IMG/VR virus record: IMGVR_UViG_3300042484_001556
Span: 2,123-66,122 of that record
Length of the DNA stretch: 64,000 nucleotides
Strand: one strand, 5' to 3'
Source of the DNA: a virus
Lineage: Duplodnaviria; Caudoviricetes
Below, piece by piece: positions 6,776 to 47,954 of this stretch. The position numbers and the translations under genes are program-made. The notes beneath the pieces are model-generated. The model ran no database searches and had not been told where the DNA came from. It worked only from the letters and a program-made list of their open reading frames with translations. How positions within the stretch are numbered: the stretch's first letter is position 1; each line of letters begins with the position of its first letter.

Positions 6776-9700
6776 ATGCAAGATTTTAGAGTAAAATCAG
6801 GACTACAAGTTTCCGGAAATATTTACGGAATTAATTACCTTACTGCCGGTAATATTACTGTTACCTATAGCGGATCGTTTGGTAATTTAACAGTAGGTGG
6901 GCAATTAGTTGCAAATGTTACAGGCACGGTAAGTTCTTTAAATAATTTTACTACGGCAAATTTAGCTGAGGGCACTAATCTTTATTATAGAGATAGCAGA
7001 GCATATGCAAATTTAACATTAGCAAGTATCGATGCTCTTTCAGATGTAAACACGGTAACCGTAACTCCTTTAATGGGATATGGGTTAATTTGGAATGGTT
7101 CAGAGTGGGCACCTAATGTAATTACTGTTTCTGATATTGCATTAGCTAATGTTGCCAATAGTGTTTTAGGTATAGTACAACAATCTATTGCGTCTTTTCA
7201 GGCAAACACTGCTAAGTTTGCGGAATCCGCAACTACTGCGAATGTAGCAAATTCTTCTGTATTTGCCACGACTGCTAATGTAGCAAATACTGTTTTAACA
7301 TTAGATAACTTTACTACAAGTGATCTAAGTGAAGGTAATAACTTATATTTTACTTCGCAACGGGCAATTGGTGCATTAGCGGGAAATAATGTCACTGTTA
7401 ATAATTTAACAGTGTCTGGCGATTTAGAAGTACAAGGTAATACGGTAACAATTAATACCGCAACACTAACGATTGAAGATAAAAATATTGTACTTGCGAA
7501 TGGAGCAACAAATGCTTCACAAGCAAATGGCGCCGGCATTACTATTGCAGGTGCGAATGCGGAGATTAAATACATATCATCAACAGACACTTTATTAATT
7601 AATAAAGCGTTAGATATCACTGATATTACTTTAGCTGCAAATACCGAAACAACCGGAGCATTACAGGTTGCCGGTGGTGCATATATTGCGGGCAATTTAA
7701 TTGTTGGTGGAGACATATATGTTCATGATGAACCGGTTGTAACTTTAAATCCGTTAAATCAAAGTATTGCATTATTACGATCCTATATGGATCAACCAGT
7801 GGGAAATGTATTATATGTCACCGGCAACGGTAACGATAATAATAGTGGTCATTCTTTCGCTAACGCATTAGCGAATATCCATACTGCGTTAAATAGAGCG
7901 CAACCATGGACTACCGTTTTTGTTAAAAGTGGAGATTATCTTTTATATGAGCAACCAGTCACCATTAAGAATCGCGTTGGTCTGGTTGGCGATAATTTAC
8001 GAACAACCACAATACGACCCGCTGAACGAACTAAGGATATGTTCTATGTGAACAATGCATCTTATGTAACGGGTATTACATTTAGAGATCATTTAAGTCC
8101 TTCGGCAGTATTTTCATATAATCCGGACGGATCGGCAGGATTTATTAGTACAAGCCCATATATTCAAAATTCTTCATCTATTACAACTACCGGAACAGGT
8201 ATGCGAGTAGATGGCAATTATGTTTCAGGGCTTCGCTCGATGGTGTGCGATTCTTATACCAATACGAATGAGGGTGGTATTGGTATCCACATGCTTAATA
8301 GAGGATATACGCAATTAGTATCGGTATTTACTATTTGCTGCGATATTGCAATTTTATGTGAAAATGGCGGATTTTGTTCCATTACTAATTCAAATGCATC
8401 GTTTGGTAGGCTTGGTCTACTTGCAAGAGGAGTTAGTAGCCCATTAAACTTTGGTAAATATGCAGAATCGTTTGAAACAGATGAGGGTACTCAATATCTA
8501 ATCACAAATTTAAATTCTCGTCCAAATTATGGCGATGTTATTTTATTTGCAAACTACGATCAGGCAAAATGCAGCAGAGATACCGGATTAATTATTGATT
8601 CTCTTGCTTTCGATTTAGCATACCAAAGTAATACGCAGTCCGCATTTGCGGGATTGCAATATTGGTCTCAATCTTCGTCAGCTATTCCGAATCAATCGGA
8701 AGAAACAATTGCTGCATTTAATTATGCAAAAGATTTATCTACAAATGTTGCCGCAAATATTAATATAACTGCTCCTAGACAAGGAAATGTAAATCAAACA
8801 TTTGGCAATGCTGGAGCATGGGTTACCAGAATTTCTGATGGATTTGATTTAGTTGCAAATGTTATTACCGGAGGAACAGTAGGTATAACGGATAGAATTA
8901 TTCCGAATACATTTCCGGCAAATACAAATGTAGCTGTCAATAATGCAGCAAATTTAGTTATTGCTAATAAAGAATTTATTCAGAAAGAAGTCATAGCATT
9001 TGTTAATCAAGAATATCCAGGATTTTTTGCGAATGCAACAAACTTTATTGATGCAGCAAATGCAATTACAAAATGCGAAAGAGACACCGGTTATCTAATA
9101 GATAGTATAATATTTGACTTCTTACATAACGGTAATCGGCAGGCAATAACATCGGGTGTATATTATTATACTAATGATTTCAATTCTACACAAATTGAAG
9201 ACCAAGTTGTACAAACAACTGCAGCATATGATTTCATTGGCACTATTATTGATGACATTGTTAGAAATAAAAAGGTTGCTGCGTATAATCAAGAAAAATG
9301 TGAAAGAGATACTAAGTTAATTGTAGATTCTATTGCTTTTGATTTAGGATATACTAGTAATACGCAATCTAATTTTGCTGGATTGCAATATTGGGCGCAA
9401 ACTTCTTCTGCTATTCCGAATCAATCGGAAGAAACAGTGGCAGCAATTGCCCATGTCAAAGTATTAGCTGCAAATATTGCACAGAATATTACAATAGCTT
9501 CACCAAAACAAGCGAACGTTTTACAAGTTTCTGGCACAGGTGGTACTGTTAATGAATCAAATATAATTACTAATAATTTTAATTTAGTTATTGATATCAT
9601 TAATAATGGCACAGTCGGAATTAGTGATAGAATTATTTCAAATAAATTTCCTGCAAATACAAATGTAGCTGTTAATAATGCTGCAAATCTCGTATTGTTG

Positions 9701-10960
9701 AATAGATCATTTATTCAAGCAGAAACTATTGCATATGTTAACCAAACATATCCAGGATTTTTTGCAAATGCAAATAACTTTATTGATGTAGCGAATGCAC
9801 AAACCAAATGCGCTAGAGATGTTGGTTATATTTTAGATAGTACCATATTTGATTTGCGTCACGATGGTAACCGTCAATCGGTTCAATCCGGTGTATTTTA
9901 TTATAATTTTAGTACAGCAAATACTCAAATTAACGAACAAATTGTGCAAACAGGCGCAGCATATAACTTTATCGGAACTATAATCGATGAAATTGTACGA
10001 GGAATTCCTGTTGCAAATGTTAGACAAAACGTATTTGTACAAAATACTACAGCAGCATCTGCCGCAACTCTAGCGGAAGCAAATATTGCACTACAAAAAA
10101 TTAGTTTAATTACTAATATTATAACAAATGGGCCCAATGTTGCGTTAGCTAAAATTTCAATTGATGCGAATGTGGCAACAATATCTACAAATGTTTCAAA
10201 TGCAGTTAAATTAATACTTGCGAATAAAGATTTTATTGCTGCAGAAACAATTGAGTTTGTAAATGCAACCTTATTTGATCCGCCTTACCAATCAGTATAT
10301 ACGCAAGATACTACGTCATATCCGGCGGCAAGTTTGGCTGAAGCAAATGTTGTACTACAAAAGATTGATCTAATTACAGATATTATAACTTTAGGTGCAA
10401 ATGCTGCCCCAGTTAAAAGCCCAATTTCTTATAGTACTTTAAGTACAAGTTCAAATGTTATTAATGCTGCTAAAATAATTTTAGCAAATAGAGATTATAT
10501 TGTTGCTGAAGTAAATGGATATATTAATAGAAATTGGGCAAATATTAGTAATGGTACAGTTGCGTTTTATACTGTAGCAAATAGTACTCCGATGGTTTCA
10601 AATACATCGTTGGTTACTCTTTTAGAGGGCGCCACAGATACTGTAATATTGGCAAATTCTTCAGTAAGTTTCCATCAACCTAGTTATATTTCTGCTCTAG
10701 GATATACATTTGAATATATTGGGTCAGGAACAAATATACAAACGGCATTGCCTTATAATGGCGGTTTTCCTATTCAGGAAAATGAAGTTACTGAGGAAAA
10801 GGGCGGTAGAGTATATTTTACAAGTACAGACCAACAAGGTGACTTTAGAATTGGTACAGAATTGGTATTTAATCGAGTAGATGGTACAATTTCTGGCAGG
10901 ACATTTAACAAGGCATTGTTTGCAGTTATGACACCATATATATTAGCAATCGAAGGATAA
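6776..10960 (+). CDS. Large virion structural protein (baseplate/fibre-associated)
   Basis: N-terminal DFRVKSGL, a beta-helix-like segment (VLYVTGNGND...GDNLRTT), four KCxRDxxxIxDS repeats and a C-terminal GRVYFTSTDQQGDFRIG. Confidence 0.7.
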   Translation: MQDFRVKSGLQVSGNIYGINYLTAGNITVTYSGSFGNLTVGGQLVANVTGTVSSLNNFTTANLAEGTNLYYRDSRAYANLTLASIDALSDVNTVTVTPLMGYGLIWNGSEWAPNVITVSDIALANVANSVLGIVQQSIASFQANTAKFAESATTANVANSSVFATTANVANTVLTLDNFTTSDLSEGNNLYFTSQRAIGALAGNNVTVNNLTVSGDLEVQGNTVTINTATLTIEDKNIVLANGATNASQANGAGITIAGANAEIKYISSTDTLLINKALDITDITLAANTETTGALQVAGGAYIAGNLIVGGDIYVHDEPVVTLNPLNQSIALLRSYMDQPVGNVLYVTGNGNDNNSGHSFANALANIHTALNRAQPWTTVFVKSGDYLLYEQPVTIKNRVGLVGDNLRTTTIRPAERTKDMFYVNNASYVTGITFRDHLSPSAVFSYNPDGSAGFISTSPYIQNSSSITTTGTGMRVDGNYVSGLRSMVCDSYTNTNEGGIGIHMLNRGYTQLVSVFTICCDIAILCENGGFCSITNSNASFGRLGLLARGVSSPLNFGKYAESFETDEGTQYLITNLNSRPNYGDVILFANYDQAKCSRDTGLIIDSLAFDLAYQSNTQSAFAGLQYWSQSSSAIPNQSEETIAAFNYAKDLSTNVAANINITAPRQGNVNQTFGNAGAWVTRISDGFDLVANVITGGTVGITDRIIPNTFPANTNVAVNNAANLVIANKEFIQKEVIAFVNQEYPGFFANATNFIDAANAITKCERDTGYLIDSIIFDFLHNGNRQAITSGVYYYTNDFNSTQIEDQVVQTTAAYDFIGTIIDDIVRNKKVAAYNQEKCERDTKLIVDSIAFDLGYTSNTQSNFAGLQYWAQTSSAIPNQSEETVAAIAHVKVLAANIAQNITIASPKQANVLQVSGTGGTVNESNIITNNFNLVIDIINNGTVGISDRIISNKFPANTNVAVNNAANLVLLNRSFIQAETIAYVNQTYPGFFANANNFIDVANAQTKCARDVGYILDSTIFDLRHDGNRQSVQSGVFYYNFSTANTQINEQIVQTGAAYNFIGTIIDEIVRGIPVANVRQNVFVQNTTAASAATLAEANIALQKISLITNIITNGPNVALAKISIDANVATISTNVSNAVKLILANKDFIAAETIEFVNATLFDPPYQSVYTQDTTSYPAASLAEANVVLQKIDLITDIITLGANAAPVKSPISYSTLSTSSNVINAAKIILANRDYIVAEVNGYINRNWANISNGTVAFYTVANSTPMVSNTSLVTLLEGATDTVILANSSVSFHQPSYISALGYTFEYIGSGTNIQTALPYNGGFPIQENEVTEEKGGRVYFTSTDQQGDFRIGTELVFNRVDGTISGRTFNKALFAVMTPYILAIEG

Positions 10961-10967
10961 AATAAAA

Positions 10968-11309
10968 ATGGCAACCGCATTAAACGTATTTAAAACAGTA
11001 ACCGCAGATATTACCACTGAAGATAAAATTCTTTATACTGCCCCATCTAGAAAAACTTCTATTTTCTTATCGGTACAGGCAGCAAATTTAAACAATACTA
11101 CGGTACAGATATCTTTTTACCATGGATCCACTGCTAATGTAAAAACTGCTCTTGCTAAAGATTTCAAAATCCCAGGCAACGACTCTATGGCTATTATTAG
11201 TGCTGGTTCTAAATTGGTTTTAGAAACTGGGCAAAAGGTATATGCAAGTGCTAGCGCAAATAATGCAGTTCAATTATTAATGAGTGTCTTAGAATCAGCA
11301 AATGACTAA
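10968..11309 (+). CDS. ~110-aa beta-rich fibre adaptor-like protein (copy 1)
   Basis: Pattern LYTAP...SVQAAN...IPGNDS...KLVLETG is shared with 24326, 27135 and 47625. Confidence 0.6.
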   Translation: MATALNVFKTVTADITTEDKILYTAPSRKTSIFLSVQAANLNNTTVQISFYHGSTANVKTALAKDFKIPGNDSMAIISAGSKLVLETGQKVYASASANNAVQLLMSVLESAND

Positions 11310-12393
11310 ACTAATATCCGGCAGAGTTGCGAAAGTTCCTAGCTCGAATGTTAGTTCGGATCGTTACCAATTCTTAGATTTATCAGAAGCAGAACCAGAT
11401 TTAGGCCTTCCGCCTGAACGGGCGCATGTACTTACCTCAGATTTAAATGGATATCGAAGTTGGATTCAATTAGATTCCGGTAACGTATTAGAAAGTACTA
11501 ATCAATACTTTACGAATACTAGAGCTAGATCCGTATTCACGGCAGGAAAAGGTATCGCAATAAACGGAGATGGTGTAATTATAAACACCGGATCTTCGTT
11601 TGAATTCAACTTAGGTATAGATGGTTCAGGATATGGCAATGTGTTAAGTACCATGTCTGGTATATTAACAATCCCAAATTCTCCAGTAAACGACAGGCAT
11701 GTATTAAGATCGTTACATATCACAAATATTAGTAATCAAGACGCATTAATATCCGGTAATATTTTATATTCTACGGGCAATACTGCACTGTTTGCGAATA
11801 AGTTACCAGTTCCAGTTGGTGGAGCTGTTGAATTAATGAGAAATGTGCAATTGCTGCAACCAAATGATAAGGTAAATCTTCAAGGATTTGCCTCAGATGG
11901 TACAGCTACATCTAATTTGTTACAATCAATTTATACATATGAAACATTTGCGACGGATTTTTCTTATGTCGGAAACGGAATTACATTAGAAAATTCCAAT
12001 ACAAATATACAAATATATGATTCGGCGCAAGGTTTTAGTATTGTAGAAAGCATTAAGCTTGTAAATTTAGTAAATTCAACTGTTCCTGTTAAAGTATATT
12101 GGGGCGATGCAAATGGAAATCCTAAAGCATATTTAGCACATAATTTACCTATTCCGCCAAATTCTACGGTAGAAATAATAACGGCACCAAAAAGAATTGA
12201 ATTGAGTGATAAATTATATGCAAATTATACAAATGCTGATGCTGGAGCAGTTTCTGCATTTATTTCTGCTAGATTAGGTTCAGTATATTCAATCGCAGCA
12301 TACACACCGTCTGCTTCTTCGTCAAATACGTTCTTAGCTTCATTTACAACTACCGAAAATGACGGTACAGTTATATACTACTCAATAGAATAG
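11302..12393 (+). CDS. Fibre carrier protein, cassette 1
   Basis: C-terminal ~290 aa is paralogous to 14205 and 18713. Ends GTVIYYSIE. Confidence 0.65.
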   Translation: MTKLISGRVAKVPSSNVSSDRYQFLDLSEAEPDLGLPPERAHVLTSDLNGYRSWIQLDSGNVLESTNQYFTNTRARSVFTAGKGIAINGDGVIINTGSSFEFNLGIDGSGYGNVLSTMSGILTIPNSPVNDRHVLRSLHITNISNQDALISGNILYSTGNTALFANKLPVPVGGAVELMRNVQLLQPNDKVNLQGFASDGTATSNLLQSIYTYETFATDFSYVGNGITLENSNTNIQIYDSAQGFSIVESIKLVNLVNSTVPVKVYWGDANGNPKAYLAHNLPIPPNSTVEIITAPKRIELSDKLYANYTNADAGAVSAFISARLGSVYSIAAYTPSASSSNTFLASFTTTENDGTVIYYSIE

Positions 12394-12397: not shown

Positions 12398-14161
12398 ATG
12401 GCAACTATATTTCCTAAAAACTTTGCATCTAATTCCTTTACTGGATCGGTCGTTGTGCGCAACGGACATGCAAATGTCTTTCTTCCTACCAATCCATACG
12501 CATTAGAAGGAAATAAACAATTCGTAGTTAGATTAAGAAAAAATAGCACCAGTGGATTTATAGTTGCAACAAGTCCGCAAATGACTATTAACGATACAAG
12601 TACAGTTGTCAGTTTATCTGCAAATGTATCTTCTGTTGCAGAGGGCAATCTTGTAAGTTTTACACTTGTTACTGCTAATGCGATGAATGGCGCAGGTATA
12701 TTTTATTCCGCATATCCGGTAACAGCAAATTTAACTATATCCGATTTTTTAGGTGGCAACACTGGCGTTTTTCCTATAGTAAATAACCAAGCAACATTTG
12801 TTCTAAGGGCAAATACGGATGCTGGTCTTGTAGACGAGACCGGAGAAAAGTTTGGTGTTCAAATAAGAACAAATTCTGCAGTAGGCGACATCGTTTATTC
12901 ATCCTCAAATGTAGAAATATTAGATTTTTATAAAACTGTCAATGTAATAAGTTTTGTTGAAAACTATACTGAAATTGCAGAGGGATCGAATGTAACATTT
13001 ACAATTACTGCACATAATGCAAATGCCACAACTTTGTATTATTATACTTCAGGTAATGTGTTACCGTCAAATTTTGTGTCCGGAAATACTGGTTCTTTTA
13101 TAATATCTACAGGGACTCCCGTAGTTGTAAATTTACCAACCACATCAATTATACCAAACAACGTATCCCAATCCTTTCAATTGAATCTTAGTCAAACGGG
13201 TGTTGGAGGAGTAGCTATAGCAACTAGCAATGTTGTATCTATTGTGGATACGGCATTGGCATTTATCAATGCCACCGGCGGAAATGTTACTGTTGCAAAT
13301 GGGTATACCTCCCATAGATTTACCGATTCAAATATATTTAATATTACAAATTTGGGAATTGTTGCAAATCGAACTATTGAATATTTAGCAGTAGCTGGAG
13401 GCGGTGCTGGGGGTGTCGGTAGCACTCCGGAAGCTATGGGCGCAGGCGGCGGTGGCGCCGGCGGCATGCTAACAGGTACGTATACTGCAACTAATACTGG
13501 AATTAGTAACATTATAATTGGCGGCGGTGGTGCCGGCGTGTCAGTTGCATTTCCTGCTACTAAAGGTGATAACGGATCTAATACAACAATTACATCTCCA
13601 TATATTTCTATATTAGCGTTTGGGGGTGGTTCTGCCGGATATGTATATAACCCAGGGGTTGCGAACGGTAATCCTGGTGGATCGGGCGGCGCCGCTGGAC
13701 GAACCTATTTGGCGGCCGGCAGTGTAGGCTCCGGAGTACCAGGGCAAGGTAATCCCGGCGGCTCGTATAGCGACAGCGCAACTGAAGCCGGAGGGGGAGG
13801 AGGTGCCGGGTCAGCTGGAGAATCGGGAAGTCCTTCTCAGGTTCCGTCTGGATCATTTAGTGCCGCTGGTGGTGCAGGCGCAACCACACCATTTACTTCG
13901 GGTGAATATTTTGCAGGTGGCGGTGGCGCCGGTGCTTACCATAGCCCGAATGACGGCGAAAGATATCTAGGTCTTGGAGGTACGGGAGGTGGCGGTAACG
14001 GTGGTGGTTATTTCCCCGGAGATCCCAATGGATCGAATCGCGCTGCTCAAAGTGGAGGAACAAATACTGGCGGCGGAGGTGGCGGAGGTAAAGGTTTCGG
14101 CGGCGTACCTAGCGGAAGCGGTGGCAGCGGTATAGTAATTATTCGGTATCGTACTAGTTAA
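12398..14161 (+). CDS. Calx-beta/Ig-like repeats plus Gly-rich adhesin-like tip, cassette 1
   Basis: Two EGxxVxFT repeats, then EYLAVAGGG...GSGIVIIRY. Confidence 0.7.
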   Translation: MATIFPKNFASNSFTGSVVVRNGHANVFLPTNPYALEGNKQFVVRLRKNSTSGFIVATSPQMTINDTSTVVSLSANVSSVAEGNLVSFTLVTANAMNGAGIFYSAYPVTANLTISDFLGGNTGVFPIVNNQATFVLRANTDAGLVDETGEKFGVQIRTNSAVGDIVYSSSNVEILDFYKTVNVISFVENYTEIAEGSNVTFTITAHNANATTLYYYTSGNVLPSNFVSGNTGSFIISTGTPVVVNLPTTSIIPNNVSQSFQLNLSQTGVGGVAIATSNVVSIVDTALAFINATGGNVTVANGYTSHRFTDSNIFNITNLGIVANRTIEYLAVAGGGAGGVGSTPEAMGAGGGGAGGMLTGTYTATNTGISNIIIGGGGAGVSVAFPATKGDNGSNTTITSPYISILAFGGGSAGYVYNPGVANGNPGGSGGAAGRTYLAAGSVGSGVPGQGNPGGSYSDSATEAGGGGGAGSAGESGSPSQVPSGSFSAAGGAGATTPFTSGEYFAGGGGAGAYHSPNDGERYLGLGGTGGGGNGGGYFPGDPNGSNRAAQSGGTNTGGGGGGGKGFGGVPSGSGGSGIVIIRYRTS

Positions 14162-16848: not shown

Positions 16849-18675
16849 ATGCCATTAACTCCAAGTAAATTTGCAACAAATTCCCTTTTTGGCACGACTT
16901 CCGTTCAAAATGGGTTTGCTAATATAATGTTAGATACGATACCCTACGCATTAGAGGGAAACGTAAACTTCGTTGTTAAATTAAGAAAAGGTAGTATTTC
17001 CGGCGACGTCATTGCTACTTCTCCAGTAATAACATTACAGGATTTAAGTTCAGTTATTAGTTTAACGGCAAATACCGCATCCGTATCTGAAGGAAGTATT
17101 GTAAGCTTTACACTTACAACCGCAAATGCTGCAAATAATGCAAACGTATTTTACTCTGTATTGCCGGTTACTGCTAACGTAACCAATTCAGATTTTTATA
17201 CTGCGAACACAGGTACAGTATCTCTTATTAATAATCAAGCAACGATTTCTTTATATGCAAACACCGACGCAGGTTATGTAAATGAAGATGGCGAAACATT
17301 TAAAGTACAAATAAGAACTAATTCTGTAACAGGTGACATTATCTACACATCTGCAAATGTTGCAATTGTAGATTTATATAAATTAGTTACTATAACAGGC
17401 GTTACGCCTAATAATGCATCTATAAATCAAGGTGCAAATATAATATTTACTGTTTCTGCACTAAATTCAAATGGAATAACTTTATTTTATTCCACTTCAG
17501 GTAACGTAAATTCTACAAACTTCATAGGTGGAAATACCGGTTCTTTTGTTGCGAATGCGACAGGCGGGTTAGTTGTATTGCAAAGTAATACCAACATACC
17601 GTTGAATGAGATACGACAGTTTGCCTTACAAGTTAATCAAACAGGATTTGCTCCTGTACCTAGTGCAAATGTTGTAATTTATGGGCCAATTTCATATATT
17701 GAAGCAACAGGTGGTACTGTAACTACTGCGGGCGGATACAGAACACACGCATTTACATCATCTGCGAATTTAGATGTTACCAGTTTAGGTGCAAGTACTA
17801 CTATTGAATATCTTATTGTTGCTGGTGGCGGTGGTGGAGGCGGTGGTGGTACTTCGAATATTCCGCCGTACTCAGGTGGTGGCCCCTACGGCGGTGGTGG
17901 CGGAGGCGGTGCTGGTGGCACATTTATTGGTAATGTTACGGTAGGGTTAGGCGGAACGGTTATTGTAGTTGGGGGCGGTGGCGCAGCGACATCACCAAAA
18001 AATAGAGCAGGATTTAATGGTACCGATACAACCATCGCGGTATTTGGGGGATCTACAATACTTGCATATGGTGGAGGTGGCGGTAGTGGTGTTCCAACAC
18101 CAGGCCCCATACCCGGCGCAGCATCTCCGGGGGGGTCGGGCGGTGGTACTGCACCAGATGCGGTGGCCGGCGCGGGAGGAGGAACTCCTGGGCAAGGATA
18201 CCCGGGAGCAGGTGGTATAAGTTGCGGCATAGCAGATAACTTAGGTGGCGGGGGCGGTGGTGCTGCGGAATCAGGAGTTAGTACAGATGGACCAAGTAAT
18301 AGTCCTGGTACTGCGACCCGCGGAGGAGATGGTATAGGTGTACCTTGGGTTCCGGGATCATATGGTACCCCTGGGCCTACACCAGGCGCAAGATATTTTG
18401 GTGGTGGCGGCGGTGGCGGTAATTCTCCTGTGGCGATGGCATATGACGTGCGCGGCGGTCATGGCGGTGGTGGAGCTGGCGGAAATTATTATTCACCCCC
18501 ATCCGGTGCATATGCAATAGGTAGGAATACTGGTGGTCGTGACGGGGGAGGATATGCAGATGGCAATACCGGCGGTGGCGGTGGAGGAAATGGTTCCGCG
18601 GGTGCATCAACCGGCACCGGCCAAGGTGGTCCTGGAGGTTCGGGTATTGTGATTATTCGTTACCCATACATATAA
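16849..18675 (+). CDS. Calx-beta/Ig-like repeats plus Gly-rich adhesin-like tip, cassette 2
   Basis: Paralog of 12398 and 20454. YRTHAFT...EYLIVAGGG...GSGIVIIRYP. Confidence 0.7.
   Translation: MPLTPSKFATNSLFGTTSVQNGFANIMLDTIPYALEGNVNFVVKLRKGSISGDVIATSPVITLQDLSSVISLTANTASVSEGSIVSFTLTTANAANNANVFYSVLPVTANVTNSDFYTANTGTVSLINNQATISLYANTDAGYVNEDGETFKVQIRTNSVTGDIIYTSANVAIVDLYKLVTITGVTPNNASINQGANIIFTVSALNSNGITLFYSTSGNVNSTNFIGGNTGSFVANATGGLVVLQSNTNIPLNEIRQFALQVNQTGFAPVPSANVVIYGPISYIEATGGTVTTAGGYRTHAFTSSANLDVTSLGASTTIEYLIVAGGGGGGGGGTSNIPPYSGGGPYGGGGGGGAGGTFIGNVTVGLGGTVIVVGGGGAATSPKNRAGFNGTDTTIAVFGGSTILAYGGGGGSGVPTPGPIPGAASPGGSGGGTAPDAVAGAGGGTPGQGYPGAGGISCGIADNLGGGGGGAAESGVSTDGPSNSPGTATRGGDGIGVPWVPGSYGTPGPTPGARYFGGGGGGGNSPVAMAYDVRGGHGGGGAGGNYYSPPSGAYAIGRNTGGRDGGGYADGNTGGGGGGNGSAGASTGTGQGGPGGSGIVIIRYPYI
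17251..17326 (+). repeat. 76-bp exact repeat, second copy at 20859-20934
   Basis: ttatatgcaaacaccgacgcaggttatgtaaatgaagatggcgaaacatttaaagtacaaataagaactaattctg is present in both tip genes. Confidence 0.9.
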
Positions 18676-18733
18676 TAAATAATAAAATGTTAAAACAAAG
18701 TAAAGTATAAAAATGCCAATAATTAACAAAGGT
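18672..18733 (+). repeat. 62-bp exact cassette-boundary repeat, second copy at 22112-22173, partial copy at about 14189-14232
   Basis: ataataaataataaaatgttaaaacaaagtaaagtataaaaatgccaataattaacaaaggt contains the stop codon, late promoter core and MPIINKG start. Confidence 0.9.
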
Positions 18734-20449
18734 GTATTTGACACAGGTGATGCATTCTATGGAGTTGACATCTCAGCTACTGATGCTGACACTACATTTG
18801 CATACTCAACCATTGGCGATAAATTTTTACTCAATAAGACGATTGACGTAGTTAAAGGCGATGTTAGAGCATCCGGCAATTTAATTGCAAATGGTTTAAT
18901 AATTAGAAACATATCCGTTTCTGATCAAGTTCTGTCGGGACAAATTATATCTGCAAACATATTAGCAGATAGTGTAACCGCAAATATTTGGAATAGATTA
19001 TACACATCAAATGTTGTAGAAAATACAAATCAATACTTTACTAATGTTCGTGTACTACAAGCAGTAACACCCGTATTAACCACTGCAAATGTTGTAGAAA
19101 ATACAAATCAATACTTTACCAATACTAGAGTATTAAGTGCCCTTGTAGGCGCAAATGTATCTGTAAATAATCTAATTGTATCCGGTGATCTTGAAGTTCA
19201 AGGTAATACAGTTACATTAAATACAGCAACACTAACAATTGAAGATAAGAATATTGTACTTGCCAACGGCGCGCCAAACTCGGCTGCTGCGGATGGAGCG
19301 GGTATTACAATTAATGGTGCTGACGCTACGTTTACATACGCAAATACTGGCGATAAATTTGTAGTTAATAAAACATTAGATGTAGTTGTAGGCGATGTTA
19401 TATCATCCGGCAATTTAATTGCAAATGGTTTAGTAATTAGAAATATAACGGTATCGGATCAAATCCTTACGGGGCAAGTTACTTCTGCAAACATACTAGC
19501 AGATATAGTAACTGCAAATATTTGGAATGGCCTTTATACATCAAATGTTGTAGAAAATACTAGTTTATATTTTTCAAATTCTCGAGCCAGAGCAGCGTTT
19601 ACCGCAGGTAAAGGTATTGTTATTCGAGGCGACGGTACTATACAAAATACTGGCGGCGCAGTAAATTATAACTTAGATATTGATGGTACGACAAGTGGTA
19701 ATATTTTAAGTACAATGTCTGCGATGTTGGCATTTCCGTCGATCCCTTCCACTGATAGATTTTTACTTCGTTCTATACACGTAGTAAATATATCAAATGC
19801 GCCAGCATTAGTTTCGGGTAATATTTTATATGCCACAGGTAATACGGCATTTTTTGGAAATCAAATACCAGTAATGGAAGGCGGCGTTCTTGAGTTTATG
19901 GACAAACCGCAGATATTTCAACCTGGCGATGTAATTAATTTACAGGGATTTGACAATTCAGGTACAGCAACATCGAATATATTAAGTGCAATGTTTACTT
20001 ATGAAACATATTCGACCGATCCATCGTTTGTTGGATTAGGTCAAACATTGACGACCAATGCTACAAATTACCAAATATATAATTCGGAACAATCCTCAAG
20101 TATAATTGAGAGCATTAAATTTGTTAATTTAGCTACAACGACTAATACAGCAAAATTATATTGGGCAGATGCAAATGGTATATTAAGAACTCATTTGGCA
20201 CATAATTTACCAGTACCTCCTAATTCTTCGGTTGAGGTATTAGTTCAACCCAAACGTATAAATTTTAAAGATACGTTATACGCAAGTATTCGAGATAATA
20301 CGAATATGTCGGTATTCGTATCTGCAAGATTGTCAGCAACATATACGATATCGGAAAATACAGGTAATGTTGCACCTGGCGGAACAGTTTCGACGGTATT
20401 TGTTACTACCGATACTGAAGGAACCACTTTGTACTACACAATAGAATAG
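18713..20449 (+). CDS. Fibre carrier protein, cassette 3
   Basis: MPIINKG start, an internal duplication of DKFxxNKTxDVVxGDV...NIWN, and a C-terminus ending GTTLYYTIE. Confidence 0.7.
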   Translation: MPIINKGVFDTGDAFYGVDISATDADTTFAYSTIGDKFLLNKTIDVVKGDVRASGNLIANGLIIRNISVSDQVLSGQIISANILADSVTANIWNRLYTSNVVENTNQYFTNVRVLQAVTPVLTTANVVENTNQYFTNTRVLSALVGANVSVNNLIVSGDLEVQGNTVTLNTATLTIEDKNIVLANGAPNSAAADGAGITINGADATFTYANTGDKFVVNKTLDVVVGDVISSGNLIANGLVIRNITVSDQILTGQVTSANILADIVTANIWNGLYTSNVVENTSLYFSNSRARAAFTAGKGIVIRGDGTIQNTGGAVNYNLDIDGTTSGNILSTMSAMLAFPSIPSTDRFLLRSIHVVNISNAPALVSGNILYATGNTAFFGNQIPVMEGGVLEFMDKPQIFQPGDVINLQGFDNSGTATSNILSAMFTYETYSTDPSFVGLGQTLTTNATNYQIYNSEQSSSIIESIKFVNLATTTNTAKLYWADANGILRTHLAHNLPVPPNSSVEVLVQPKRINFKDTLYASIRDNTNMSVFVSARLSATYTISENTGNVAPGGTVSTVFVTTDTEGTTLYYTIE

Positions 20450-20453: not shown

Positions 20454-22115
20454 ATGGCAACTATACTACCTAGTAATTTTACTTCGAATTCATTATCTGG
20501 ATCATTTACTGTTCAAAATGGTTTAGCCAATATAACACTTCGCACGGTTCCTTATGCATTAGAGGGGGACAAACCGTTTGTTATTAAAATTCGCAGAAAT
20601 GGTATAACCGGCGATGTTATTGCAACATCTCCGCCAATCGTATTACGAGATACTAGCTCTATTGTAAGTTTAACTGCAAATGTTTCATCTATAGCTGAAG
20701 GAAATCTTGTAAGTTTTACTTTTGTTACGGCAAATGCAACAAATAATGCAAATATATTTTATTCAGTATTTCCAGTAACAGCGAATTTAACATTGTCTGA
20801 TTTTTATGGTTCTAATGTAGGAATTGCTACATTAGTAGATAATCAAGCAACTTTCTCATTATATGCAAACACCGACGCAGGTTATGTAAATGAAGATGGC
20901 GAAACATTTAAAGTACAAATAAGAACTAATTCTGCTTCAGGTAACATTGTTTATACGTCATCTAATGTAGCAATATTAGACACATATAAAGCATTTAATG
21001 TATTCGGCTTTGTTGAAAGTATTTCTTCTGTGGTTGAGGGAGCTAACGTAACATTTACAATTACTGCACATAATGCGGATGCAGGTACATTATACTACTC
21101 TACTACAGGTAATGTTACAAGTTCTAGCTTCGTATCCGGTAATACTGGATCAGCTGTTGTTAGTGGTACTACTGCTACAATATTATTACAAACAACCTCC
21201 ACCGTGCCTGCCCTTGAAGAAAGAACATTCCAATTAAAACTTAGTCAGACATCGGCATTTGGACCAACCATAGCAACTAGCAACACGATAACTATAATAG
21301 ACTCTGCATTGGCATATATTAATGCAACAGGCGGCGATCTAGTTACTGTTGCTGGTGGTTACAAGACTCATAGATTCTATACTTCTAATGCATTAGTCAT
21401 TACTGGATTAGGTACTCCTGCAGGCAGAACACTTGATTATCTAGTTGTTGCTGGCGGTGGCGGTGGCGGTGGCGGACTATACGGTGGTGGTGGCGGTGGC
21501 GCTGGCGGTTTTAGAACAAGTGCAGTTACTGTCACTACTGCGGGGAATGTAACTGTTGTCGTTGGTGCGGGAGGGGCACAGGCGACTTATATCGCACCTG
21601 GTGCTTCAAGTATGTTTAGCGGAAATCCATCTTCAATCAATGCCCCATATGTATCTATTGATTCAGCTGGCGGCGGGCACGGCGGCGGTTATCCGGTCTC
21701 ACCTAGCGGCGCCGGCGGCGGTTCAGGTGGCGGTGGCGGACATTCGGCAACTTATCCCGCAGGTGGCGGTACTCCTGGTCAAGGAAATCCTGGCGGTATT
21801 CTATACGGCGGAGGTGGAGGCGCATCGGCTGCTGGTACGAATGGCGGCGCTGGTAGCGCCAACCCTAAGGGTAATGGAGGAGATGGTTCAACCACACCGT
21901 TTACTCCTGGCGAATATTTTGCAGGTGGAGGTGGCGGTGGCAAAGAAACGATGCCACAGCCCGCATCCGTTGGGTCGGGTGGATTAGGTGGCGGTGGACC
22001 TGGATTATCCGCCGCAACTGTTAATACTGGAGGCGGAGGCGGAGGCGGTGTACAATCAAATCCTTCTGGTGCAGGTGGTTCGGGTATTGTGATTATTCGA
22101 TATCCATACGCATAA
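20454..22115 (+). CDS. Calx-beta/Ig-like repeats plus Gly-rich adhesin-like tip, cassette 3
   Basis: Paralog of 12398 and 16849. YKTHRF...DYLVVAGGG...GSGIVIIRYP. Confidence 0.7.
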   Translation: MATILPSNFTSNSLSGSFTVQNGLANITLRTVPYALEGDKPFVIKIRRNGITGDVIATSPPIVLRDTSSIVSLTANVSSIAEGNLVSFTFVTANATNNANIFYSVFPVTANLTLSDFYGSNVGIATLVDNQATFSLYANTDAGYVNEDGETFKVQIRTNSASGNIVYTSSNVAILDTYKAFNVFGFVESISSVVEGANVTFTITAHNADAGTLYYSTTGNVTSSSFVSGNTGSAVVSGTTATILLQTTSTVPALEERTFQLKLSQTSAFGPTIATSNTITIIDSALAYINATGGDLVTVAGGYKTHRFYTSNALVITGLGTPAGRTLDYLVVAGGGGGGGGLYGGGGGGAGGFRTSAVTVTTAGNVTVVVGAGGAQATYIAPGASSMFSGNPSSINAPYVSIDSAGGGHGGGYPVSPSGAGGGSGGGGGHSATYPAGGGTPGQGNPGGILYGGGGGASAAGTNGGAGSANPKGNGGDGSTTPFTPGEYFAGGGGGGKETMPQPASVGSGGLGGGGPGLSAATVNTGGGGGGGVQSNPSGAGGSGIVIIRYPYA

Positions 22116-24325: not shown

Positions 24326-24697
24326 ATGGCAGCACCCAATTTAATCGGCGCAACAACAATTAACGGAAAAACTTCCGGAATAAGTTTAACAACTACAGTA
24401 GCAACTACTGTATTAAATAATCCGGCAAGTTCTGGCAAATGCTTAAAAATTAATACATTAAATGTGAGTAATTATAGTGCTTCATCTGCAACTATAACGG
24501 TATCATACAACACTGGTGCTAATTTAACCGGTACATCATTTCAAATTGTAGCAAACGTAACTATTCCGTCGTATGCGACTTTGAATATTATTGATAAATC
24601 TAGTCAATATTATTTAGAAGAAAATAGATGTTTAGCTGCAACCGCAGGTACTGCAAATACAATAATATTAACTACAAGCTATGAGGATATTAGCTAA
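24326..24697 (+). CDS. ~120-aa fibre adaptor-like protein (copy 2)
   Basis: KINTLNVSN...IPSYATL...YYLEE...SYEDIS, same fold pattern as 10968. Confidence 0.6.
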   Translation: MAAPNLIGATTINGKTSGISLTTTVATTVLNNPASSGKCLKINTLNVSNYSASSATITVSYNTGANLTGTSFQIVANVTIPSYATLNIIDKSSQYYLEENRCLAATAGTANTIILTTSYEDIS

Positions 24698-25650: not shown

Positions 25651-26055
25651 ATGGCACATTTTGCAAGATTAGATAATTTTAACACGGTTATAAATGTTAT
25701 TGTTGTTGCTAATGAAGATACATTAGTCGACGGCATTGAAAATGAACAAAAGGGCATAGAATTTTGCCAAAGTTTAATTCCAGGTAAATGGATTAAAACT
25801 AGTTACAATACCTCCGGCGGAAGACATTTATTAGGTGGCTTGCCTTTTAGAAAAAATTATGCTTCTATTGGTTATAAGTATGATCCCAACCGAGACGCAT
25901 TTATTCCTCCGCAACCTCATATGAGTTGGACACTGAATGAAACAACCTGTTTATGGGAAACCGCGGTAGAACATACCAAAGATGGTGAAACTTGGTCTTG
26001 GGATGAAGCTTTGCTTGATTGGGTAAAAGTAACACCCGTCGTAACTTTACCTTAA
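25651..26055 (+). CDS. Gly-rich-tip-associated small protein (fibre assembly/chaperone-like)
   Basis: MAHFA...WIKTSYN...FRKNYA.IG..YD..RDAF..PQP..SW.L.E.TC.W; paralog of 52355. Confidence 0.55.
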   Translation: MAHFARLDNFNTVINVIVVANEDTLVDGIENEQKGIEFCQSLIPGKWIKTSYNTSGGRHLLGGLPFRKNYASIGYKYDPNRDAFIPPQPHMSWTLNETTCLWETAVEHTKDGETWSWDEALLDWVKVTPVVTLP

Positions 26056-27134: not shown

Positions 27135-27464
27135 ATGGCAACAACATACAAAGTTTTAGGACAAGTTAATCCCGCATCAAATACATTCACTACGCTGTAT
27201 ACGGTTCCGGCGGCAACAAGTACAGTTGTATCTACAATTAATGTGTGTAATCAAGGCATAGCTAACGATACTTTTAGAATTGCAATTAGGCCAGGCGGCG
27301 AAACATTAGTTCCAAAACATTATATATCTTTTAACACTGTGGTTCCTGCATATGATTCTATTAGTTTAACAGTCGGAATAACATTAGCTACAACTGATAT
27401 AATCACCGTGTATGCAAATGCATCTACAACAAGTTTTAATGTGTTTGGTTCGGAGATTAGTTAA
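27135..27464 (+). CDS. ~110-aa fibre adaptor-like protein (copy 3)
   Basis: MATTYKVLGQ...TLYTVPAA...VCNQ...SFNVFGSEIS; close paralog of 47625. Confidence 0.65.
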   Translation: MATTYKVLGQVNPASNTFTTLYTVPAATSTVVSTINVCNQGIANDTFRIAIRPGGETLVPKHYISFNTVVPAYDSISLTVGITLATTDIITVYANASTTSFNVFGSEIS

Positions 27465-32500: not shown

Positions 32501-32815
32501 AATAATATAACTGCATATTATTCGGATGATAGATTAAAAACTAAATTAGGTCCTATTACCGACGCATTAGATAAAATTAAACAATTATCTGGATTTTATT
32601 ATCAGGCAAATGAAATTGCGCAGGCATTGGGATATGAAGTTAAACAAGAGGTGGGTGTATCCGCACAGGAAGTACAAAAAGTACAACCAGAAGTAGTTGC
32701 CCCTGCGCCAATTGATGAAAAATATTTAACTGTTAGATATGAAAGATTGATACCTCTAATTATTGAAGCAATTAAAGAATTAGACGTAAAAGTCAATGAG
32801 CTAAAGGATAAGTAA
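29513..32815 (+). CDS. Long collagen-like (Gly-X-Thr) tail fibre with C-terminal S74-type chaperone
   Basis: GXT triplet tracts interrupted by small domains, VTSVNGxTGAVVL repeats, and SDDRLKTKL...[13 protein letters not shown]...[17 protein letters not shown]. Confidence 0.85.
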
Positions 32816-33891
32816 TGGCTTTATTGAATTCGGGTGCAATTAGTCTCGGTGGAAATATATCAGGTCTTTCAGTTAATCTTGAATTATTTAAAGCAGCCAA
32901 CGCTACAATAAGTATAAATGATATAGATGCTAGAGACTTAGCAGATATTCCATCCGGTACAATTTCATTGAGCGATTTCTATGGTAAGTCTTATTATGCA
33001 TTTGGGCAAGAAGAATTTACTACTCCCGGTACATACACTTGGGTATGCCCGTCTGACGTAACATCCATTTCTGTTTTATGTATTGGTGGAGGTGGAGGCG
33101 GTAGTGCCGGAACGAATCTTATTGGCGTAGGAGGCGGTGGTGGCGGCGGTGCGCTAGCTTATAGAAATGCGGTTGCGGTTATTCCTAATCAAAGTTATAA
33201 TATTGTTGTCGGCGCAGGAGGTACTGGTCAAATAACAATTAGCGGAACAACTACTCAAGAAGCAGGAAGTGGCGGTGGATCTAGCGCATTCTCCTGTGTC
33301 GGCGGTGGAGGACAATCCGGAGGAAAATCGTCGGCAAATGCAACCATTAGTATTGGCTCATCTGCACTAGGAGACGGTGGCACTCTTGGGGGAGTATATA
33401 GCGGAGGTTCAATTGGTGGAGCTGGTGGAAGTATAGATACTTCTTCTGTAGGTTTTCGAGCACCAGGCGGCGGTGGCGCAGCTGGCTATACCGGAATAGG
33501 AGGAGCGGGCGCTCGAGGTGCAAGACCAACAGGATCTCCTGCATCGTCCGCCGGCTTTGCGGGCACTGCGGGATTAGGAGGCGGTGCAGGTGGAGGTGGT
33601 TCTGGATATATAAGCGATACCATACGAGAAGCAACCGGCGGCAACGGTGGTGGCGTAGGAGTGTATGGTTCGGGGCCAAACGGTGCTGGAGGAATAGGCG
33701 GATCCTCGACAATAACACGCGGTAATGGTGGAGATGGTTCATTTGGTTCATTTGGTTACTATGGTGCAGGCGGCGGGGGTGGGGTAGGCGGTTCGACTAG
33801 AAATGCGGAAAATGGTATAAATGGTGCAGTAAGAATAATTTGGCCTGGGCAATTACGTTCATTCCCTCTAACACTAACAGATAATGTTTAA
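32815..33891 (+). CDS. Gly-rich adhesin (gp38-like arrangement at the fibre tip)
   Basis: N-terminal SGAISL...ISLSDFYGK cap, Gly-rich body ending GAVRIIW. Start overlaps the stop of the chaperone-bearing fibre. Confidence 0.65.
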   Translation: MALLNSGAISLGGNISGLSVNLELFKAANATISINDIDARDLADIPSGTISLSDFYGKSYYAFGQEEFTTPGTYTWVCPSDVTSISVLCIGGGGGGSAGTNLIGVGGGGGGGALAYRNAVAVIPNQSYNIVVGAGGTGQITISGTTTQEAGSGGGSSAFSCVGGGGQSGGKSSANATISIGSSALGDGGTLGGVYSGGSIGGAGGSIDTSSVGFRAPGGGGAAGYTGIGGAGARGARPTGSPASSAGFAGTAGLGGGAGGGGSGYISDTIREATGGNGGGVGVYGSGPNGAGGIGGSSTITRGNGGDGSFGSFGYYGAGGGGGVGGSTRNAENGINGAVRIIWPGQLRSFPLTLTDNV

Positions 33892-35473
33892 AGAATATAT
33901 TGTAAGTTTACAAAAAAATGTAGATTATACCTCATTTTGGCAGGAGATGGAGTCTCCTACGAATGCCCATCCATTCATTCCTGATAGAAAAATAGATATA
34001 GTAAATAATAGAGATGGTAGCACAAGAAGTTGCCATTATTCGTTAACAGATGAAGAAGCAAATATATTAAAAAATGATTCTAGAGTATATTCCGTAGAAA
34101 TTCCACCTGAACAACGAGACGATATAAAAATTGGATTTCGTGGTGCACAGGTTGGAGATTTTACTAAGCCATCGACATCAACCGGTGCATATAAAAATTG
34201 GGGATTGCGTAGAATAAACAGCGCAACCAATCTTTATGGTACGGGTACAACTACCGATAATGTTTACAAATATTTACTAGATGGCACAGGAGTAGATGTT
34301 GTTATACAGGATAGCGGCATTGAACTGAACCATCCGGAATTTAAAGACAATTTTGGTTCTTCTCGAATACAACAGATAAATTGGTATACTGCCAGCGGCT
34401 TGGGCGGTACACAGAACGCAAATCATTATAGAGATTATGATGGGCACGGGACGCATGTTGCCGGTATAGCAACGGGTAAAACTTTTGGCTGGGCAAAAAA
34501 TGCAAAAATATATTCTTTGAAGGTAAGCGGTCTTGAAGGTGCTGGCGATTCTGGTACTGGGATATCAATTACGGATTGCTTTGACGTAATTAAACTTTGG
34601 CATAGAAATAAACCAATTGATTCATCTACGGGATTTAAGCGACCAACAATTGTTAATATGAGCTGGGGATATAGTTTAACCTATTCATCTGTATCTTCTG
34701 TTTTATATAGAGGAGTTACTTACAATGATGCCAATACTACAGGTAATGCAGCATATCGTTGGACAAATTTTGGCTTAGTAAATTTATCTAGTGGCGGAAA
34801 TTTTATTACTAATTTTAGATTAGGATCCGTTGATGTTGATATACAGGAAATGATTGATGAAGGCATACATGTCATCATTGCTGCGGGAAATAACTACCAC
34901 AAAATAGATACTCCGGACGGAGTAGACTATGAGAATTATTTTACTTCTGGTGGATCAGATTATTTCTATCACAGAGGTTCTAGTCCATATGATGACGAAG
35001 CGTTTAAGGTTGGTAATATTGATAGTACTGTATTTTCTGCAGTACAAGATCAAAAAGCCCATTCAAGCGAAACCGGTCCAGGTGTTGATGTATGGGCGCC
35101 GGGATCAAATATTATAAGTTGCACTAGTAACACTAATTCATTTAGCGGTGTTGCCTATAATTTAGATTCTAGCTTTAAACAAGTTATTTTAAGCGGAACA
35201 TCAATGGCTGCACCTCAGGTGTGTGGGTTAGGCGCACTTTATTTACAAATAAATCCCGGAGTAAGACCAAATCAACTTAAATCTTGGTTCTTAGGAAAAT
35301 CGGTAAGCAATACCACCATATATAGTTCTAACATCAACAATGATTATACTAATACTAGATCATTGCTAGGTGGAAATAATAGATTTGTATATAACCCATT
35401 TGGTATAGATTCGGATACTCTTGTATCTGGTCCAATGACTTTAGTATCAGGAGCAATTAACTTAACACAATGA
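33884..35473 (+). CDS. Subtilisin-like S8 serine protease, probably virion-associated
   Basis: Catalytic triad motifs VVIQDSG, HGTHVAG and GTSMAAPQV, with oxyanion AAGN and NMSWG. Confidence 0.9.
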   Translation: MFKEYIVSLQKNVDYTSFWQEMESPTNAHPFIPDRKIDIVNNRDGSTRSCHYSLTDEEANILKNDSRVYSVEIPPEQRDDIKIGFRGAQVGDFTKPSTSTGAYKNWGLRRINSATNLYGTGTTTDNVYKYLLDGTGVDVVIQDSGIELNHPEFKDNFGSSRIQQINWYTASGLGGTQNANHYRDYDGHGTHVAGIATGKTFGWAKNAKIYSLKVSGLEGAGDSGTGISITDCFDVIKLWHRNKPIDSSTGFKRPTIVNMSWGYSLTYSSVSSVLYRGVTYNDANTTGNAAYRWTNFGLVNLSSGGNFITNFRLGSVDVDIQEMIDEGIHVIIAAGNNYHKIDTPDGVDYENYFTSGGSDYFYHRGSSPYDDEAFKVGNIDSTVFSAVQDQKAHSSETGPGVDVWAPGSNIISCTSNTNSFSGVAYNLDSSFKQVILSGTSMAAPQVCGLGALYLQINPGVRPNQLKSWFLGKSVSNTTIYSSNINNDYTNTRSLLGGNNRFVYNPFGIDSDTLVSGPMTLVSGAINLTQ

Positions 35474-45968: not shown

Positions 45969-45986
45969 TTTAGAATTGGTATTTTT

Positions 45987-47154: not shown

Positions 47155-47178
47155 TTGTGGTAAATTTAAAGGATTAAT

Positions 47179-47616: not shown

Positions 47617-47624
47617 GGAACAAT

Positions 47625-47954
47625 ATGGCAACTAAAATTAAAGTATTAGGGCAAGAAATACCATCGGCAGATACCGATACTACATTATATACGGTACCGG
47701 CGGCAAATAGCACAATTGCATCCACATTGCAAGTATGCAATCAAGCTAGTAGCGATGCAAAATTTCGTATTGCGGTTAGACCAGCGGGCGCAGCAATTGC
47801 AACAAAACATTATCTATTATATGATACGGTAATACCGGCCAATGACGGTATTTCGTTGACATTGGGGTTAACATTAGCTGCAACAGATGTTGTTACGGTA
47901 CGTGCAAATACAGCTAGTGTAAGTTTTAATATATTCGGTTCTGAAATATATTAA
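47625..47954 (+). CDS. ~110-aa fibre adaptor-like protein (copy 4)
   Basis: Close paralog of 27135 (KVLGQ, TLYTVPAA, VCNQ, FRIA.RP, SFN.FGSEI). Confidence 0.65.
   Translation: MATKIKVLGQEIPSADTDTTLYTVPAANSTIASTLQVCNQASSDAKFRIAVRPAGAAIATKHYLLYDTVIPANDGISLTLGLTLAATDVVTVRANTASVSFNIFGSEIY

Follow-up and report, generated by a model that had tools for sequence, protein, structure and literature searches.

A hydrophobic C-terminal tag and a small jelly-roll adaptor as a probable docking joint in a viral fibre gene cluster

Introduction

How are different tips mounted on the fibres of a single phage? Fibre tips, most of them unannotated, determine which hosts an aquatic phage can infect, and the question is raised by a 64,000-nucleotide stretch of viral DNA (the window), bases 2123–66122 of the 66-kb IMG/VR record IMGVR_UViG_3300042484_001556 (Duplodnaviria; Caudoviricetes), in which a very large fibre gene cluster occupies the left 52 kb. 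Four fibre genes of this cluster (6776, 22153, 26664 and 47179; genes are named by their first position in the window) encode proteins that end in a short hydrophobic tag. Each is followed by the gene of a small protein, hereafter the adaptor (10968, 24326, 27135 and 47625), and then by the gene of a further fibre or tip protein. We propose that this three-gene cassette probably encodes a non-covalent docking joint, by which the end of a fibre would receive a receptor-binding tip or a further fibre segment; the contact between tag and adaptor is deduced from gene context.

A sequence-only reading of the window had already suggested a general tag-and-socket joint. The conserved cassette, the class pairing of tag and adaptor and the existence of split and fused forms, all described below, support that suggestion in part; its description of the tag by a terminal glycine was imprecise. 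CheckV estimates the contig to be 37% complete, every gene of the window lies on the + strand, and genes of nucleotide metabolism, as read from their translations, lie in the part outside the fibre cluster. When 12 kb of the window was compared with cultured phages by megablast, no match to a cultured relative was obtained.

Results

The four tagged fibre genes end 7 (6776), 1 (22153), 9 (26664) and 8 nt (47179) before an adaptor gene encoding 109–123 amino acids (Table 1), just as the sequence-only reading had it, with a protein of about 110–120 amino acids within 10 bp of each fibre. All four C-termini also read as it had given them, but only two of the four end in glycine. A better description of the tag is a hydrophobic motif that differs between classes and occupies the extreme C-terminus, the terminal glycine not being its defining feature; three classes were distinguished: A (..FLLMGA), B (..TPYILAIEG) and C (..GYSLIFGG). 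Hydrophobicity alone is not distinctive. The four tags rank 2, 3, 12 and 13 among 62 open reading frames (ORFs) of the + strand, because glycine-rich proteins also end in hydrophobic residues. In 6776 the tag stands at the end of a conserved C-terminal domain of about 130 aa (aa 1264–1393 match phrog_17885 'tail fiber protein', 5.8e-73, profile positions 872–1001 of 1002). A fifth cassette, of class B, lies just upstream of the window. It comprises a tag-bearing fibre (1..1491 in the numbering of its locus) ending in ..AVMTPYILALQ, a 120-aa adaptor (1501..1863; E 3.6e-15) that begins 9 nt later, and, from 1870, the start of the gene seen in the window as 2..1924.

We then asked how widely the arrangement is conserved. 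Sets of the three genes proved to recur in hundreds of other phages from the environment. With 27135 as the query for class A, 80 loci were fetched, out of at least 420 relatives; 24326 gave 80 loci for class C, and 10968 gave 24 for class B. In the class A loci, an ORF was counted as upstream if it ended within -12..80 nt of the adaptor. The 80 class A loci contain 89 adaptor ORFs, 79 of them with an upstream ORF, and 70 of these 79 carry a tag of consensus [FL][LM]L[MIG]G[AGM]. Among unique upstream ends, 55/64 match. Control ORF ends from the same loci match the 6-mer pattern in 20/360 cases and end in G[AGMIL] in 33/360, and several of the control matches resemble true tags. The enrichment of tags before adaptor homologs, which had been put forward as a check by neighbourhood statistics, is thus borne out and exceeds chance (55/64 unique ends in G[AGMIL] vs 33/360). 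The upstream proteins are otherwise unrelated (collagen-like, repeat-rich and others): only their last six columns align, usually behind a stretch rich in G, S and T. Class C adaptors (loci L103–L182) are preceded by ..GYSL[IV]FGG or ..AIAMxxIFG[GYLF], and class B adaptors by ..KALFAVMTPY[IM]LA[IL]EG, the tag of 6776 recurring upstream of them in loci L183–L203. A near-identical copy of the 47179 cassette is present in locus L037.

Successive cassettes are found as well, in line with the earlier suggestion that segments are chained. In L031, L041/L042 and L029 the protein downstream of an adaptor is itself tag-ended or tag-like (..TETISPFLLMGA, ..IEIMSYMGAY, ..HILDVMQAI), with a further adaptor of about 100–125 aa behind it. 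The cultured siphovirus Pontimonas phage phiPsal1 has a clear example of the class A arrangement: an 86-aa protein ends in ..GGLDNALMLMGG (..NALMLMGG), and after 6 nt comes an adaptor homolog, phiPsal1_021, which is 50% identical to 27135 and is annotated 'putative virion structural protein'. Remoter copies, nearly all annotated hypothetical, occur in S-CAM1, HMO-2011 and Methylophilales phage Melnitz, and weakly in P-SSM2/P-SSM5 and Streptomyces phages. In P-SSM2, PSSM2_302 follows the tail fibre PSSM2_301 (ending in ..SEFFVGQI), a weak match (E 0.08) to be taken as a lead only. HTVC010P, which is named in the phiPsal1 annotation, was not found by tblastn at E<=0.1.

The last codons of the tag were examined together with the start of the adaptor gene. 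The junctions in the window are GAAGGATAA, GGAGGATAA, GGAGCATAGGGA and AGGAATGTAAGGA, with GAAGGA, GGAGGA, GGAGCA and GGAATG as the last codons before the adaptor start. Across loci, when the gap is <=12 nt, glycine at position -2 of the tag is encoded by GGA in 58/74 cases, vs a background of 25%; this GGA codon doubles as the Shine-Dalgarno element of the adaptor gene. At gaps >12 nt the glycine is present in 14/20 tags, encoded by GGT (4), GGA (4) or GGC (6). As it is retained there with even codon use, it is kept at the protein level.

The four adaptors had been regarded as one family. This proved correct, as they align with one another and share a hidden Markov model (HMM), and an eight-strand fold is predicted for 27135. 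Identity to 10968 is 21–25%, and 27135 and 47625 are 59% identical. Membership was assigned on a significant HMM match over about 105 of about 110 positions together with an eight-strand sandwich. When the HMM built from the four adaptors was run on all 240 ORFs of at least 50 aa in the window, on both strands, the four themselves scored E 1e-46 to 1e-50 by construction, and beyond them only 14205 (aa 740–839, E 7.5e-10) and 11302 (aa 217–319, E 1.1e-8 or 2.9e-8) were matched, the next best ORF having E 0.083. These two belong to a group of three fibre proteins, the carriers (11302, 14205 and 18713), in whose C-termini adaptor-like domains had been noticed; the HMM thus recovers two of the three, and 18713 gives no direct match. 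Three of the four adaptors match positions 1–110 of the 325-position profile phrog_1276 (function unknown), 24326 has no PHROG at 0.01, and adaptors and carriers have no Pfam family at E 0.01. Against 1.84 billion representative proteins, the adaptor profile matched 2786 representatives at E<=1e-3 and 584 at <=1e-10. Most of the best 150 of the 2786 are free-standing, with about 109 aa; 23 are 213–242 aa long with two matched stretches, and 16, of 250–838 aa, have the adaptor domain at the N-terminus.

The AlphaFold2 (AF2) model of 27135, obtained from a 99-row alignment (pLDDT 94.7, pTM 0.84), is an eight-strand jelly roll, all-beta but for one short helical turn. The adaptor profile has no match in the PDB by sequence (best E 0.12, a dehydrogenase), and the same search gave nothing for 24697 or 28658. 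By fold, the VIA search returned generic small jelly rolls with Z 8–10 (HDT1/nucleoplasmin 10.1, KHP40 cement protein 9.9, Ena pilins, XepA/YomS), and the best Foldseek match was the Bd2133 fibre tip (E 5e-4, TM ~0.5). Fold neighbours were considered as a guide to function and set aside, the matches being only generic jelly rolls. Close matches in BFVD are uncharacterised phage proteins, a few of them named virion (structural) protein (MaMV-DC, S-TIM5, S-SCSM1) or tail fiber-like protein (S-CAM1, P-SSM2); those in the ESM Atlas are 'hypothetical protein' clusters only.

To relate the classes of tags and adaptors, the adaptor class was taken from the best window relative and the tag class from the motif, which gave 156 unique pairs from 184 loci in other viral contigs. 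Cognate pairs make up 132/156 (A-A 69, B-B 10, C-C 53), cross-class pairs 0; another type of end was found in 12 and no upstream ORF in 12. A quick maximum-likelihood tree was made of 158 adaptors, 136 rows of which carried a tag-class label; the tag class needs 2 changes on it, vs 40–59 in 200 shuffles. Contigs L111–L114 hold two classes side by side, each properly paired. A comparable case exists within the window: the knobs of 26664 (aa 94–144) and 22153 (aa 660–710) are 63% identical, the alignment stops at the linker, and these homologous knobs are followed by a class A tag in 26664 and a class C tag in 22153, the matching adaptor coming after each. The pairing in L111–L114 and this exchange behind homologous knobs exceed what kinship of whole cassettes provides. 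The protein downstream of the adaptor has its own class-specific N-terminus, M-x-K-R-Y-x-G-G-[VI]-[IM]-S-A in class C, ..GKVKKV.P..DRY.FL.L.EAEPDLG in class B and a weaker M-A-[IV] start in class A, and the adaptor stop and the partner start usually overlap by 1 nt.

Both split and fused versions of the joint had been anticipated, and both exist: other phages have the adaptor joined to the tip, and the carriers have it joined to the shaft. When 20 longer relatives were compared with Pfam, the families following the N-terminal adaptor were Gly_rich_2 (8), TIG (4), He_PIG (3), Laminin_G_3 (2), RCC1 (1) and DUF285 (1), and 6/20 had no Pfam family beyond the adaptor domain. These domain types are those that follow the adaptors of the window: Gly_rich_2 (24697, 27464), TIG (47979) and TIG/He_PIG/Laminin_G_3 (48327). 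In L207/L208 a fused adaptor-Gly-rich protein of 397 aa has as its immediate upstream neighbour a protein of at least 830 aa that ends in ..TLNTFLLMGA. The fusion is the first of three adaptor genes in a row (2495..5827), the others being a 597-aa adaptor-LamG-Gly-rich fusion and a free 107-aa adaptor; the three may represent alternative tips for one shaft. The window itself offers a comparison with a fused tip, as the covalent domain of 28658 sits where its paralog 26664 has linker and tag.

The three carriers have a common C-terminal module of about 285 aa, with 112 database homologs, some of them free-standing (about 246 aa); over this module 18713 is 54–58% identical to the other two. In 11302 an N-terminus and a short shaft precede tandem jelly rolls (aa ~106–216 and 222–325) and a tail of about 35 aa. 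The AF2 model of the module (pLDDT 87.1) consists of two tandem eight-strand sandwiches and matches the single-domain BFVD entries of the adaptor model (TM 0.7–0.88 on target) as well as two-domain proteins of S-SKS1, S-CAM1 and P-SSM2. Carrier domain 2 aligns with the adaptor family (hhalign probability 90%, E 1.5e-6). The carriers are without a tag, and behind every one of them lies the gene of a glycine-rich protein. Of the earlier view that carriers are tagless and hold two fused adaptor-like domains, the lack of a tag and the kinship of domain 2 thus stand, and domain 1 is recognised by predicted fold only. The glycine-rich proteins behind the carriers (12398, 16849 and 20454) have a common N-terminal part of about 300 aa (MATI[FL]P.NF.SNS..) that is not present in the shorter tips; it may meet the double jelly roll of the carrier.

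The profile of the glycine-rich proteins matches the Pam3 fibre (7yfw, 7ypx) with E 1.4e-3 over about 140 positions, shorter matches being glycine runs; S16 gp38 was not matched in this search. In the Pam3 study, the glycine-rich domain is described as the receptor-binding end of the fibre and is likened to S16 gp38 (PMC9608196). Gly_rich_2 was also found in 32815 (43.2 bits) and 51279 (54.0 bits), the gathering cut-off being 24.3 bits.

Table 1. Genes of the tag/adaptor cassettes and carrier units, with positions in the window
Position	Strand	Length (aa)	Protein	Details
2..1924	+		Collagen-like fibre	Collagen 5.7e-24; C-terminal Peptidase_S74 1.3e-12; downstream module of the fifth, class B cassette
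6776..10960	+	1394	Fibre	Class B tag ..AVMTPYILAIEG (..TPYILAIEG), codons 10931-10957
10968..11309	+	113	Class B adaptor	8-nt overlap with next gene; phrog_1276 4.8e-10
11302..12393	+	363	Carrier	Class B partner N-terminus (..DRYQFLDLSEAEPDLGLP)
12398..14161	+	587	Glycine-rich tip	Gly_rich_2 PF21722 2.9e-19, 70.4 bits
14205..16847	+	880	Carrier	Repeat shaft and C-terminal double jelly-roll module
16849..18675	+	608	Glycine-rich tip	Aligns with other Gly-rich proteins; no Pfam match at 1e-3
18713..20449	+	578	Carrier	C-terminal module common to carriers
20454..22115	+	553	Glycine-rich tip	Gly_rich_2 3.2e-21, 76.8 bits
22153..24324	+	723	Fibre	Knob aa 660-710, linker, class C tag ..VGYALVFGG (codons 24295-24321)
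24326..24697	+	123	Class C adaptor	Stop overlaps next start by 1 nt
24697..25647	+	316	Glycine-rich tip	Class C partner N-terminus MVKRYQGGFISAT; Gly_rich_2 5.5e-17, 63.0 bits
26664..27125	+	153	Short fibre	Knob, G/A/S linker, class A tag ..VSPFLLMGA (codons 27096-27122)
27135..27464	+	109	Class A adaptor	Stop overlaps next start by 1 nt; phrog_1276 1.1e-8
27464..28591	+	375	Glycine-rich tip	Gly_rich_2 1.1e-9, 39.0 bits
28658..29506	+		Paralog of 26664	80% identity over aa 1-133, then covalent C-terminal domain of ~150 aa
47179..47616	+	145	Short fibre	Five 18-aa repeats; class A tag ..FNPLSLMLSGM (codons of ..NPLSLMLSGM 47584-47613)
47625..47954	+	109	Class A adaptor	phrog_1276 1.3e-10
47979..48299	+	106	TIG protein	After second class A adaptor
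48327..51137	+	936	TIG/He_PIG/3x Laminin_G_3 protein	Distal module

Other features of the fibre cluster were recorded in passing. Fibres 14205, 18713 and 22153 open with the same ~30 N-terminal residues (MPIINKG[VI]F..), two of them going on with ..YLR[ED]VGNDWPTAQVI, which suggests a proximal docking site separate from the tag/adaptor joints. Two paralogous small proteins starting with M[AS]HFA.. are encoded directly after glycine-rich genes, 25651..26055 (134 aa) after the tip gene 24697 and 52355..52726 (123 aa) after 51279; they have no Pfam family at 1e-3 and may be tip-specific helpers. A group-1 glycosyltransferase (1962..3050, 1e-15) and a subtilase (33884..35473, Peptidase_S8, 3e-32) are encoded inside the cluster. 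The collagen-repeat fibres 2..1924 and 29513..32815 both end in a Peptidase_S74 'chaperone of endosialidase' domain, and the long antisense ORFs within them (e.g., 322..759, 31351..32049) are repeat artefacts.

Discussion

The data presented in this report suggest how the products of such cassettes would be assembled. The jelly roll of about 110 aa would serve a distal fibre module as its docking domain, or 'socket'. Its ligand would be the short hydrophobic stretch with which the preceding fibre ends, carried behind a flexible G/S/T-rich linker, and the jelly roll would in turn hold the next protein, whether a further fibre segment or a receptor-binding tip of the glycine-rich, TIG or LamG type. 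The putative joint occurs in three arrangements: a split form with tagged shaft, adaptor and tip as separate proteins, of which adaptor and tip are coupled in translation; a fusion of adaptor and tip, as in other phages; and adaptor-like domains borne by the shaft itself, as in 11302, 14205 and 18713. With at least three specificity classes (A, B and C), each having its own tag consensus and partner N-terminus, several fibres could assemble in parallel without mixing, and tips might be exchanged by recombination at cassette borders. The tag may be bound as a strand added to the sheet or by a pocket that takes up the free C-terminus; its strict confinement to the end of the protein suggests the latter.

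Several points weigh against a joint of this type. The motif patterns were composed after viewing the data. Among unique class A upstream ends, 9/64 are without a tag, and in an independent set of 20 loci from bacterial/archaeal assemblies, mostly contigs of metagenome-assembled genomes, 9/16 upstream ends are canonical and 3 are near-variants. In L207/L208 no tag precedes the second and third adaptors. By sequence, the match of carrier domain 1 falls short of significance (hhalign E 0.016 vs the family, 7.8e-5 vs domain 2). Class pairing and the few changes on the tree could equally be expected from co-inheritance of whole cassettes. The co-evolution of tag and adaptor that the sequence-only reading had proposed would agree with the pairing of classes, with not one cross-class pair among 156; at the level of residues, 312 column tests within class A had no power, only 4–5 independent pairs lying on supported branches. 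Furthermore, no solved structure with a connector role specifically resembles the adaptor fold, generic jelly rolls being the best matches, and the presence of the adaptor in the virion is read from annotations of homologs only.

It could be argued that the adaptor is an assembly chaperone, Tfa-like or T4 gp38-like, which binds the hydrophobic C-terminus of the upstream fibre during folding or trimerisation and forms no structural joint. The adaptor gene lies directly downstream of a fibre gene, like the genes of fibre chaperones such as TfaMu and Pam3 gp25; these two grip the distal fibre by a beta-sandwich domain (PMC9608196), and a hydrophobic tag is what an aggregation-prone end might look like. 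Against this, the adaptor occurs in other phages as a fusion with domains of receptor-binding type and is integral to the C-termini of the three carriers, its all-beta model has no counterpart of the helical trimerisation domain known from gp25 and Tfa, the search of adaptors against Pfam at 0.01 gave no match, and homologs are annotated (by annotation only) as virion structural proteins. We consider a chaperone without a joint unlikely; the two roles are not mutually exclusive.

Another explanation, which we find improbable, is that the cassette is real but that tag and adaptor do not touch: the adaptor would be the N-terminal domain of the tip, the tag would close the trimer or bind tip or baseplate, and the pairing would reflect co-inheritance. 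The congruence of the pairing with the adaptor phylogeny, which kinship alone can yield, the lack of covariation independent of kinship and the adaptors that follow untagged proteins are all compatible with such a scheme. It is difficult to reconcile with the conservation of tags on otherwise unrelated shafts, with the homologous knobs of 26664 and 22153 that bear different tags, each matched to its adaptor, with the absence of a tag from the shaft-fused carriers, and with 28658, in which a covalent domain takes the place of the tag. Finally, that the C-terminal motif is a by-product of nucleotide constraint, the ribosome-binding site of the adaptor gene falling in the last codons, is very improbable: the preference for GGA and the window junctions given above agree with it, but the codons of the hydrophobic positions -6 to -3 are not purine-rich, the glycine persists with mixed codons at longer gaps and the tags are class-specific, so that this constraint accounts only for the codon choice of the terminal glycine and is largely refuted for the hydrophobic core.

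The docking joint thus remains the reading that we favour. A bolder version of it is put forward only tentatively. Many phage lineages might share an orthogonal code made of a free C-terminal hydrophobic peptide and a small jelly-roll socket, acting in a PDZ-like manner or by strand complementation, with at least three exclusive specificities per virion; a trimeric shaft would present three tags, and some genomes have several adaptor-tip genes in a row behind one tagged fibre (L207/L208), so that one fibre could carry mixed tips and provide combinatorial, rapidly exchangeable host recognition.

The cassette provides a rule by which receptor-binding proteins can be recognised in metagenomes. 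It may account for the many different tips carried by large phages and would explain how tips can pass between unrelated shafts. Judged by the cultured phages that have distant copies, likely hosts are cyanobacteria, SAR116 and freshwater or marine Actinobacteria. The small natural peptide/domain pair could also be used for mounting tips on phage fibres in laboratory host-range work. No description of the adaptor family or of the tag motif was found in the literature searched, whose scope lay outside subscription journals and supplements, and searches with the motif strings gave no relevant paper. The present arrangement differs from gp38 systems in its socket family, which is undescribed, in its defined peptide at the C-terminus and in having several classes of specificity.

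With respect to known systems, the proposed joint would work in the manner of gp38. In T2/S16, gp38 is a monomeric adhesin on the gp37 tip, which attaches by an N-terminal domain and carries a polyglycine sandwich (PMC12032242). In phages of the T2, T6 and S16 type, this distal receptor-binding protein, with its glycine-rich (polyglycine II) domain for the receptor, is separately encoded, bound non-covalently and specified by a gene beside the fibre gene (PMC12032242, PMC9608196), and the joint proposed here would resemble it in these respects. Unlike in gp38, the docking domain proposed here is a free-standing or fused eight-strand jelly roll, for which no similarity to gp38 was detected in the PDB by sequence or in the 50 top-ranked rows of the fold search, the fibre carries a short conserved hydrophobic tag at its C-terminus, at least three classes occur in one genome, and the payloads are varied (Gly-rich, TIG, LamG, whole fibres). 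The Pam3 tail fibre gp24, made of a helical anchor, a TNF-like jelly roll and a glycine-rich domain, likewise has a jelly roll followed by a glycine-rich receptor-binding domain. The likeness of its TNF-like domain to the adaptor is one of domain order only, and gp24 is a single chain whose helices dock on the baseplate and which needs a separate chaperone, gp25; the accessible text describes no tag or socket (PMC9608196). In the chain-like fibres of the podophages GP4, VP1 and A1002, small beta-rich subunits are strung on the peptide of another protein by beta-sheet augmentation; the subunits are described as dimers on an internal 'rope' domain of the nozzle protein, and no C-terminal tag is described for them (PMC13730344). 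Strand addition of this type is a possible geometry for the binding of the tag.

Joints between separate fibre proteins also exist in T4, where the small proteins gp35 and gp36 join gp34 and gp37 end to end. They are not known to be related to the adaptors in size or sequence, there is one such joint per T4 fibre, and we know of no conserved C-terminal tag code in that system. Modular, exchangeable and sometimes branched fibres are likewise known from Klebsiella phages of the KP32/K11 type, in which an N-terminal peptide of RBP2 docks on RBP1, and from the XD domains of the CBA120 tailspike proteins. In these phages the incoming protein docks through a peptide or domain at its own N-terminus, for which the carrier protein offers a T4gp10-like or XD domain. 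In the joint proposed here the polarity would be reversed: the peptide is the C-terminus of the carrying fibre, and the socket is either part of the incoming protein or placed ahead of it.

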